Program-made: the position numbers and the translations under genes
DNA from: Escherichia coli
GTDB taxonomy: Bacteria > Pseudomonadota > Gammaproteobacteria > Enterobacterales > Enterobacteriaceae
Length of the DNA: 64,000 nt
Assembly: GCF_003334765.1 (NCBI RefSeq)
Contig: NZ_QOWT01000006.1
Reading direction: 5' to 3' (one strand)
The notes under the pieces: model-generated
What the model saw: only the letters and a program-made list of their open reading frames with translations
Told to the model about the DNA's origin: nothing
Databases searched by the model: none
Shown: piece by piece, positions 23,268 to 29,036 of the stretch
Layout: every line of letters begins with the position of its first letter
Position numbering within the stretch: the first letter of the stretch is position 1

Positions 23268-26200
23268 TTAGAACGTTTTCTTGAAGTTCAGCATCACGCC
23301 TTTATCGCTGATGCCATCCTCTTTCCAGTTGTACGCATCCAGATTCAGCGAACTTTCTTTGCTGCTGTACTTCACGCCGACGCTTGTCAGGCTATTGATG
23401 CCGCCGCCCTTCTGACCGTCATCGACGTTAAAGTGCTGACTGCCTGCGCCTGCCAGGCTTGCCGTACGCTGGCTCTTCGCGTAGCTCAGGTTCGGCCCGC
23501 CTTCCAGCGTAGCGCTAGCGCTCCAGCCGTCTTTACCTGCGTAGTCCAGTTTCAGCCCGACGATGCTGTCCACCGCCGTTTCGCTGCCACTGTTCATATT
23601 CAGGTTAAAGTCTCCGGCATTGCGCTCCTGATAGCCACCTTCCAGTGTGTGACGCAGTTTTACACCCGCATATGGCGTAACCTTCAGTCCTTCGCTCGGT
23701 TCGAAAGTCTTCGCCCCTTCGCTGCGGAACTCCAGGTACTGCTGTTTCACGTCGGTATCAGCCGTTTTGTTCGTGTTGCCAAATGCAATCGAGCGGCTGC
23801 TGTCAAGGTTGTGAACGTCGTAACGCAAGGCGTTATTCCAGTTCATGCCGTTATCGAACGACATCTGATGTTTCAGGCCAAAAAACTGGCTATAACCGCC
23901 TGTAACGCCATTATCACCCGCTTTCTGCGCACCATCACCATCGAGACGAGCGATACCGTACTCCAGACTCATCGTCTGGCTTTCGCTCAGGTCGATAGTT
24001 TTACGCAATGCCAGCATGTCGTATTCGGTATTATTACCTAACTCGGCACGCGGATCGCCTTTCGCGACAACGTTGAACGCCAGACCGTTACCCACTTTCG
24101 GCGCGGCATCTGCCAGCATACTAAAGCGGTTGCTTAACACGCGCGCTTCGCGGAATACCGTGGTCGCCTGGCTACCGCTGACCTGTTTCAGAGCACTGTT
24201 CAGTTCAGCAGTCGTGCCGACGTTCAGGCTGGTAAACAGTTCGTTGTTGGTGTAACCCGCATCCAGTGCTTTCGCGATGTCATTCACCGAGGCATCTGTT
24301 GCCACATCGGTGTAGGCATTTTTGCTCATGGTGACGTCAACGTTACCGCTGGCATCGGTGCTGCCTTTGGCAGTCCATACCACGGACGTTGAGGTGATGG
24401 CGTCAGCGTCGGTCAGGTTGCTACCTTCCACTACGTTATCAAAACTCACAGTGGTGTCTGCCGTACCAGCGGTAAAGCCCGTGTTAATCTCCACGCCGTT
24501 CATGCTGGCATTGTTAACCTTCAGCTTCCCGGCGCTGCCGTTAACGTTGGTACCGACGACATAGCCGTTGAGGTTGTTCATGCTGCCACCAGCCTCATCA
24601 CTTCCCGACGTTACACTAACCGTATTGGGCTTCGGCACATCCGGCAACGTATAGTCGCCATAATGCACTTCGCTGCTATTACCGTTGTTACCGTTCATAC
24701 CTTCAACATTGATGCTGTCGCCCTGCTTGATCAGTCCAGAACCCGTAACCCCATCGGCAATCACCACCGTGCCGTTGTTAACCACATGACCTACTGTACC
24801 CAGTACGCTAAATGCAAACGAGTCATTGGCGAAGATATTGATGGTGCCGTTGTTTTCGATTACCGCATCCGCCGTGGCGTTGGCATCGAGTTGCATACCG
24901 ATCATACCCGTGTCAGTAGTGCCTGCGGTACCGAGGTTGATGGTGCCATTGTTAACCAGCTGCGCGTTCTTATCACCTTCCATAGCCACAGCACCGGTGC
25001 CGCTGATGTTCATGATGCCGTCATTCTGGGCAATAAAGTTGCTGTGGGTGACTTTCACGGCACTGGCGCTGTCGTGATCGAAGTTGATGACCCCGTTATC
25101 CTGGTTCCAGAAGAAGGCATTCTGATCGCCGGCATTATTAGCGCTGACTACCAGTGACTTCGCAGAAACATCAATCGTTCCGTCATTGATAAAACGACCA
25201 TTTCCGCCCCACATATTAACGGCTCCGTTGTGGGAAGAATTACTGATGTTCATGTGACCGGTATTATAAAGCGTACCGGACTGGTTGATGTGCACAGCAT
25301 TCTTGTCGTTATCAAGAATAAACTCGCCGCGGTTATTGAAAGCTGAATTATTATTAACTTCCAGCATCCCGGTGTTGTTACCCTCACTACTACTTCCGAG
25401 GTTCCAGGTTCCTTCGTTATTTGCCACTGCAGTACCTGTCAGCGCAGCACCTCTCATAATCGCCCCGTCAGTTTGATTATTAAAGACCCCGCCAGCCGAC
25501 ATCATCCGCCCTGTTACACTGCCACTATTATTGAATACCCCCGCGTTCTGCACGATTTTATTGATGGTTCCGGTGTTGTTCACTAACGAACTATCAGCAC
25601 CAGCATTCATGGTAATTTGCGCAGTCATTTCTCCGGCATTATTGAGGATTCCACCGCTAACATCGACGTTATTCGTCATCACCCCGGCATTTTTAATGAC
25701 GGCACCCTTGTCAAGTTTTACTAAGTTATTGATGATGCCACCGCTGGTATTTTCCAGAAGACCGCTTGATACCGTAATTTGATCACCGGAAAGCGTTCCG
25801 CTATTAACAACATTCCCAGCCAGCTTATCAGTCACAGCAGCAGATTTATTTAGCGTTACAGTTTCTCCGCTTCGTGTAATCGTATCGCCACCGGTATAGA
25901 TCAGTGAGGTGAAATCATCTGTATTATTGTACTCATTCCCCGATTGGCACACGCCGAAAGTGCAGATTGTACCATAGTTAACAATTGTTCCTGTGCCATC
26001 GTTATAAAACGCCTGACCAGTACCAACATTGATATTGATAACACCCGTCTGGTCGTTGATAGCAGTACCATGCTCATAAACAGCCATCCCTACCAGAGTA
26101 TTTGCTGCCAGACTATCGTCATAATTACCATTTTTTTCGAGGTTAATCGTCCCCTGGTTAATAACTGTATTGCTGGCGCCATAGGCCGCCATACCTGCGC

Positions 26201-29036: not shown

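Follow-up and report, generated by a model that had tools for sequence, protein, structure and literature searches.

Among the closest described systems to the gene analysed here are the ydbA pseudogene of Escherichia coli K-12 and the BigA protein of Salmonella enterica (NCBIfam NF033178). BigA has been classed with AIDA-I by its passenger and with NalP by its barrel (Celik et al. 2012; PMC3419190), and full-length ydbA has been reported in ~42% of phylogroup A genomes, with the MG1655 copy termed an autotransporter pseudogene (2016; PMC4951805). Here, we examined a stretch of 64,000 nucleotides of E. coli DNA (contig NZ_QOWT01000006.1 of assembly GCF_003334765.1; the whole stretch is called the window), in which ydbA is uninterrupted and encodes a protein of 1922 amino acids (aa) that is the intact ortholog of the K-12 pseudogene product and very probably a monomeric autotransporter of the classical kind (type Va), in the BigA/YdbA family of enterobacteria. 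Intact ydbA is in itself already known, since it is annotated in RefSeq, its Pfam domains are named after BigA/YdbA and its prevalence has been published, and the novelty implied by a first-pass annotation of the window, made from the letters alone, therefore falls away.

As in K-12, ydbA lies between paaY and pdxI (ydbC), preceded by paaX and paaY and followed by pdxI, which encodes an aldo-keto reductase, and ydbD, and the synteny paaX-paaY-ydbA-pdxI-ydbD is the same in both. The first-pass annotation had described one continuous open reading frame (ORF) of 5.77 kb and 1922 aa, and this stands: in the ORF list and its translation the frame runs from an ATG to a C-terminal ...KKTF with zero internal stops. 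The chance of 1922 open codons is (61/64)^1922 ~ e^-92, so a frame of this length cannot be random. The gene and the two sites at which K-12 carries insertion sequences (IS) are as follows.

23268 to 29036, minus strand: ydbA coding sequence (CDS), 1922 codons ended by a TAA stop at 23268-23270, orthologous to the ydbA pseudogene of K-12 and intact
26813 to 26817, minus strand: empty target site of K-12 IS2, whose 5 bp K-12 carries in duplicate (from a blastn alignment with the K-12 locus)
26763 to 26765, minus strand: empty target site of K-12 IS30 (blastn against the K-12 locus; the frame is restored on removing IS30 plus 3 bp)

In the K-12 derivative MC4100, ydbA is annotated as two pseudogene pieces with the IS2 and IS30 transposase genes in between, and genomes of the MG1655 lineage are interrupted at the same point, so that the first-pass annotation was correct in describing the MG1655 gene as split by these two elements. 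The insertion points are 50 bp apart, and the alignment with K-12 ydbA leaves both target sites empty, with the window continuous over both. Once IS2, IS30 and their target duplications had been removed from the K-12 gene in silico, the repaired locus formed one ORF of 2020 codons, which compared with the window protein has 0 substitutions and one additional repeat of 98 aa. All mismatches between the window and K-12 ydbA fall within the tandem-repeat array, where they arise from register overlap, and the DNA is identical elsewhere; the array holds 2.2 copies of a 294-bp repeat in the window (1922 aa) against 3.2 in K-12 (2020 aa). The window allele is thus not merely the K-12 gene minus its IS elements, empty as both sites are, but is also one 294-bp repeat shorter. 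A natural intact protein of 2020 aa (WP_046952270.1) differs at one residue from the repaired K-12 product. The earlier statement that the window contains no IS sequence agrees with the results of two comparisons: blastn of the window with K-12 IS2 and IS30 gave no match, and window positions 1-59468 are collinear, at at least 99.9% identity, with an annotated stretch of strain P13-6 that holds no transposase gene, except for 872 bp deleted in P13-6.

The domain content of the protein, which the first-pass annotation had proposed to check by prediction, places it among autotransporters. Pfam found the domains BigA_N, BigA_beta and Autotransporter (the query for the C-terminal domains began at aa 723), and the C-terminal part divides into three regions, described here with the independent E-value (i-E) of the Pfam match and the predicted local distance difference test (pLDDT) of AlphaFold2 (AF2) models.

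24315 to 24566, minus strand: BigA beta-sandwich (BigA_beta, PF25783), aa 1491-1574; Pfam i-E 3.3e-25, model positions 1-84 of 84; AF2 strands with pLDDT 83-93
24105 to 24314, minus strand: helical linker, aa 1575-1644; AF2 helices, of which the last (aa 1626-1644, 19 residues) directly precedes the barrel
23271 to 24083, minus strand: autotransporter beta-barrel, aa ~1652-1922; PF03797 i-E 1.1e-18 at aa ~1696-1892; AF2 pLDDT ~90

The AF2 model of aa 1440-1922, built with 26 homologs, has a pLDDT of 83.6 and a predicted template modeling score of 0.75 and consists of a beta-sandwich, a helical region and a barrel. Its best Foldseek matches in the PDB are the translocators AaaA, EstA, NalP and EspP (E 5e-10 to 1e-6), and the protein ends in ...MLNFKKTF, with the final F kept in at least 90% of the 26-sequence alignment; the PF03797 match, the predicted barrel and the translocator matches together bear out the beta-barrel ending in Phe that had been read from the sequence. 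The whole YdbA sequence had no match among PDB chains at E <= 0.01, and the PADLOC defence models gave none either.

Among these translocators, NalP (PDB 1UYN) is one of the best structural matches to the predicted YdbA barrel plus helix, with a template modeling (TM) score of 0.68 normalised on NalP, although the two are only 13% identical, the passenger of NalP is a protease and its N-terminus is lipidated, and YdbA is without a lipobox. The structural matches accord with the published assignment of the BigA barrel to the NalP group. With the AIDA-I/Ag43-type self-associating autotransporters YdbA shares the type Va plan and a long repetitive passenger, beta-helical by prediction in YdbA, and it differs from them in a barrel of the NalP-like group and in an extra N-terminal module; at the thresholds used, no Pfam AIDA or pertactin-type domain matched YdbA. 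Salmonella BigA agrees with YdbA in layout and has the same order of signal peptide, Cys loop, hydrophobic segment, acidic/Pro-rich spacer, BigA_N, passenger, BigA_beta and barrel. The C-terminal 480 aa of YdbA are ~72-78% identical to the Salmonella proteins, whereas identity falls to ~34-37% over the N-terminal 236 aa, and the chromosomal locus of Salmonella BigA is not that of ydbA. The BigA/YdbA family is kept in several enterobacterial genera, and the named relatives retrieved with a C-terminal query all belong to Enterobacterales. Many family fragments in NCBI are named 'EntS/YbdA MFS transporter', labels that appear to reflect a mix-up of the names YbdA and YdbA.

Between the N-terminal module and the beta-sandwich lies the passenger, part of which is a tandem array detected by Tandem Repeats Finder (TRF).

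24567 to 28376, minus strand: passenger, aa 221-1490, rich in Gly, Asn, Thr and Asp and beta-helix-like (composition; AF2 of the first part; RefSeq names)
27717 to 28376, minus strand: tandem array of a 294-bp (98-aa) repeat, 2.2 copies, within the passenger (TRF)

The composition of the whole protein (G 13.0%, N 10.9%, T 10.1%) accords with the long Gly/Thr/Asn-rich passenger noted in the first-pass annotation. In the AF2 model of the N-terminal part, which reaches aa 298 with ~1200 passenger residues beyond it, aa 205-298 form short strands at regular spacing (pLDDT 81-95), and the RefSeq names for ydbA products include 'pectate lyase-fold' and 'beta strand repeat-containing'. The number of in-frame 294-bp repeats varies by strain, and some strains are 294 bp shorter here, as if they had one copy fewer.

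Comparison of alleles indicates that this protein has long been maintained. We computed the ratio of nonsynonymous to synonymous substitution rates (dN/dS) against two divergent alleles differing at more than half of synonymous sites, and obtained 0.05-0.06 for the barrel, 0.04-0.07 for the sandwich plus linker and 0.15-0.22 for the passenger, the last being approximate as dS is near saturation; for the N-terminus the ratio against L006 is meaningless, as the L006 locus lacks the 5' end. Such low values (0.05-0.2) identify ydbA as a real gene under purifying selection and no mere compositional ORF. Divergent alleles have ~78-81% DNA identity over their alignable parts, and one is 8.2 kb long. 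The window CDS matches that of RefSeq WP_001573416.1 in strain P13-6 at 100% identity, as it does that of several further complete genomes of pig, cow, dog, human, soil and sediment origin, and several complete genomes agree with the window at 100% over 6.4 kb of DNA; the exact 1922-aa protein is recorded on 441 public contigs, within a 90%-identity cluster of 10,492 members. Of 5426 complete E. coli genomes, 1236 match a 301-bp probe spanning both K-12 insertion sites and 852 match it without interruption, and the interrupted genomes among the matches listed are mostly K-12 or laboratory derivatives. K-12 is a poor reference for the surface proteome of E. coli, as this gene illustrates. A wild-type ydbA fit for expression can readily be had, and repair of the K-12 gene needs only the excision of two IS elements.

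From this architecture we propose the following route to the cell surface. The signal peptide would take the YdbA precursor through Sec, after which the C-terminal ~270 residues would be assembled by the barrel assembly machinery (BAM) into an outer-membrane beta-barrel, and the helix before it would occupy the pore. The passenger, ~1500 residues long, would then be threaded out C-terminus first and form a long beta-helical stalk that includes the 98-aa repeats, with BigA_N at the distal end and, beyond it, the acidic/Pro-rich spacer, the Gly/Ala-type hydrophobic segment and the small Cys loop. By analogy with AIDA-type passengers, the most likely role of a YdbA secreted and displayed in this way would be surface adhesion or aggregation.

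Several observations weigh against YdbA as a working adhesin-like autotransporter of the BigA type. The NCBIfam model auto_BigA (NF033178) gives it a score of 1075.9 bits against a cut-off of 3400 bits, which makes YdbA a paralog or relative of BigA and not a BigA equivalog; E. coli holds a separate BigA-like paralog besides YdbA. A functional study of YdbA or of enterobacterial BigA was sought in the searchable literature and none was found, and two papers on Salmonella and E. coli bigA base the terms 'virulence' and 'adhesin' solely on citing a study of Brucella BigA. Since Brucella BigA is a different protein, an unrelated one with Ig domains, the functional adhesin label for bigA rests on a shared name. 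A conserved hydrophobic segment after the signal peptide, taken up below, lies outside the standard autotransporter plan. At the level of the gene, the window allele has been independently interrupted by IS4, IS3, ISKpn26, IS1A and IS2 in 7 of the 40 best-matching genomes, and in 11 of 30 genomes evenly spaced along the match ranking ydbA is wholly deleted, leaving a gap of ~320 bp between paaY and pdxI; missing from about a third of this ranked sample, the gene is dispensable and often lost. In strain 121, ydbA consists of two ORFs. The entire paa cluster is missing from strain 121, where ydbA adjoins ydbL.

These losses speak for an alternative in which ydbA is intact but cryptic, that is, silent, on its way to loss and without any contribution in this strain, its frame being open only because no IS has landed in it yet. 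The recurrent insertions into one and the same allele, the complete deletions, the split ORF and the restriction of full-length copies to ~42% of phylogroup A all fit such a gene, as does what can be said of its expression, for which the upstream region was examined.

29037 to 29366, minus strand: AT-rich upstream intergenic region, ~33% GC, 330 bp (composition profile)
29043-29047, minus strand: ribosome-binding site (RBS) AAGGA, 6 nt 5' of the ydbA ATG, read from the sequence

This upstream DNA is identical to that of K-12, and a promoter scan of it gave 11 matches against 10.5 expected, which is chance level and uninformative. An rpoZ mutant of K-12 has 7.7-fold more ydbA transcript, with prophage genes raised alongside (PMC5811629), and this rise together with the AT-rich upstream region suggests that ydbA is normally poorly expressed; in the laboratory this is probably the case, and the gene may be silenced there. 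A cryptic ydbA would nonetheless have to be reconciled with dN/dS values as low as 0.05-0.2 at a synonymous divergence of over half the sites, which indicate long-term purifying selection on the protein, with the persistence of an identical 1922-aa sequence in strains of many hosts and sources, and with the retention of the family in several enterobacterial genera. We regard a gene without any contribution as less likely than not. The locus is a clear case of long-term purifying selection combined with recurrent loss through IS hits, deletions and changes in repeat number.

A second alternative concerns the N-terminal module, whose Cys loop, hydrophobic segment and acidic/Pro spacer are conserved family-wide and constitute the one under-described feature of these proteins.

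28974 to 29036, minus strand: Sec-type signal peptide, aa 1-21 MQRKTLLSACIALALSGQGWA, predicted cut before AD (by inspection; kept in 21 family members)
28857 to 28916, minus strand: Cys41...Cys60 loop CPADPGKLSPEELKRLPSEC, with C41, P42, L48, L56 and C60 invariant in 21 family N-termini
28773 to 28835, minus strand: second hydrophobic segment, aa 68-88 LMPWLSTGAAALITALAVVEL, Kyte-Doolittle (KD) 19-residue mean 1.78 (1.26-2.12 in 21 relatives)
28620 to 28772, minus strand: acidic/His and then Pro-rich spacer, aa 89-139, with 15 Pro and 13 Asp among 51 residues
28377 to 28619, minus strand: BigA_N domain (PF25784), aa 140-220; Pfam i-E 7.2e-33, model positions 1-80 of 80; AF2 pLDDT 86-96

In 21 aligned members from several genera the order is the same: a signal peptide, an invariant C-P...L...L-P..C loop, the hydrophobic segment, an acidic or His-rich patch, the Pro-rich spacer and one to three BigA_N domains. 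The signal peptide has a basic n-region (MQRK), a hydrophobic core and G-W-A at positions -3 to -1 by inspection, and this inspection and its conservation in 21 relatives support the signal peptide reported in the first-pass annotation. The Cys loop is modelled by AF2 as short helices (pLDDT ~76-80) and, judging from its two invariant cysteines, may be closed by a disulfide between Cys41 and Cys60. An invariant pair of cysteines at this place, like the hydrophobic segment after it, does not belong to the textbook layout of autotransporters. The hydrophobic segment is ~20 residues long across the 21 members, mostly Gly/Ala-rich and often with Trp as its first residue; in YdbA its hydropathy is at transmembrane level, with an AF2 pLDDT below 50, unpacked into any domain. 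The Pro-rich spacer of the 21 members is very variable in length and often contains PPDDGGD-type repeats, also at the position of the YdbA spacer, which is itself not a perfect tandem repeat according to TRF. The unusual acidic His/Pro-rich linker noted earlier is thus present (aa 89-139), yet it is typical of the BigA/YdbA family and not peculiar to this strain. In Salmonella BigA, a variable-number tandem-repeat (VNTR) locus used in multilocus VNTR analysis (MLVA), STTR3, lies between the signal peptide and the remaining polypeptide (PMC5183578), and we infer that STTR3 is the equivalent of the YdbA spacer.

AF2 modelling of aa 1-298 gave pLDDT 81-96 for BigA_N and for the rungs with which the passenger starts, and a Foldseek search of this model against the PDB returned nothing below E 0.1, so that BigA_N is without a recognisable solved relative. 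An HMMER scan of 1.84 billion representative proteins found only 59 with a YdbA-type N-terminus, and a word-indexed search with the N-terminus gave almost only fragments because draft assemblies break in repeats.

On the second alternative, YdbA would not act mainly as an adhesin. Instead, the module would have a function of its own at the far tip of the stalk, where the hydrophobic segment on its Pro-rich spacer would insert into a target membrane (host or bacterial) or anchor the passenger N-terminus to the cell's own envelope, with a reach tuned by repeat number. The presence of the module in 21 of 21 aligned members from several genera, with both cysteines invariant, speaks for such a device, as do the transmembrane-level hydropathy (KD 1.26-2.12) and the low-confidence, unpacked modelling of the segment. 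Precedents exist in the N-terminal GxxxG region of VacA and in the lipidated N-terminus of NalP, a protein with the barrel type of BigA. VacA, likewise with a type Va passenger, has a Gly/Ala-rich hydrophobic stretch that directly follows its signal peptide, whereas the YdbA segment is without tandem GxxxG, is preceded by a 47-residue segment with the Cys loop and is followed by the Pro-rich spacer. Family-wide, chains of the small-xxx-small pattern number 81 compared with 69.7 +/- 4.0 in shuffled sequences, a value reached by 5 of 2000 shuffles, although the kinship of the sequences overstates this significance. The glycine-zipper pattern is present in some relatives, but a glycine zipper in aa 68-88 of YdbA itself was rejected: the segment has no GxxxG and a chain of 2, which 89% of shuffles match. 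On the Hessa scale a rough sum is positive (0.4-5.0 kcal/mol) and points to no more than marginal insertion, and experimental support for membrane insertion or anchoring was sought and none found. Taken together, we consider a membrane-inserting or envelope-anchoring tip improbable. A stop-transfer anchor at aa 68-88 was likewise rejected as the principal explanation of the segment, since it would leave the barrel in the cytoplasm and the Hessa-scale sum is positive.

Misassembly or misannotation of a repeat-rich region, with collapsed repeats or a hidden frameshift, is a very improbable source of the long ORF, even though the number of 294-bp repeats differs among assemblies and many database entries are fragments ending in this region. 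The frame is open throughout between flanks identical to K-12, and variants one in-frame 294-bp unit longer or shorter also exist. The identical full-length protein on 441 contigs, several of them complete genomes that agree at 100% over 6.4 kb of DNA, and the 852 genomes uninterrupted at the K-12 IS sites argue that the intactness of ydbA is no sequencing accident.

We therefore retain the reading of YdbA as an intact type Va autotransporter with a probable surface role. The YdbA/BigA proteins make up a functionally unstudied family of very large autotransporters, for which the window allele can serve as a starting point.

Downstream of the gene lies one further element, in keeping with the first-pass annotation, which had placed a terminator after ydbA.

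23214 to 23248, minus strand: intrinsic-terminator-like hairpin and U-run, 20 nt past the ydbA stop (sequence and RNA fold)

The hairpin reads AAACCGCAAC-(10 nt)-GUUGCGGUUU followed by the U-run, and folds at -20.1 kcal/mol (z = -2.3); a T-run is present in the DNA, and the consensus terminator scan missed the hairpin because its loop is 10 nt. The many ORFs on the opposite strand had been dismissed as compositional artefacts, rightly as it turned out: four of the five long plus-strand ORFs over ydbA share the antisense frame whose codons coincide with the sense codons, and this frame is kept open by codon usage because TTA, CTA or TCA make up only 34 of the 1922 sense codons.

Around ydbA, a 21-codon ORF at window positions 29198-29263 on the plus strand, between paaY and ydbA, corresponds to the hypothetical protein WP_010723099.1 in K-12 and P13-6 and is, we presume, ynbG. 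The 872 bp at window positions 36682-37553, in the paa operon, are those deleted in the otherwise ~99.99% identical P13-6, where the annotation gives paaE and paaF as truncated pseudogenes. At window positions 59419-63317, uspF is directly followed by ORFs that we take to be ttcA, dbpA and zntB, and P13-6 has prophage tail genes at that point; the strain of the window thus appears to be without the prophage found beyond uspF in P13-6, the prophage at this point in K-12 presumably being Rac. In the P13-6 stretch collinear with window positions ~6568-7568, a gap (gapC-like) glyceraldehyde-3-phosphate dehydrogenase gene is annotated as a pseudogene with a frameshift and an internal stop.

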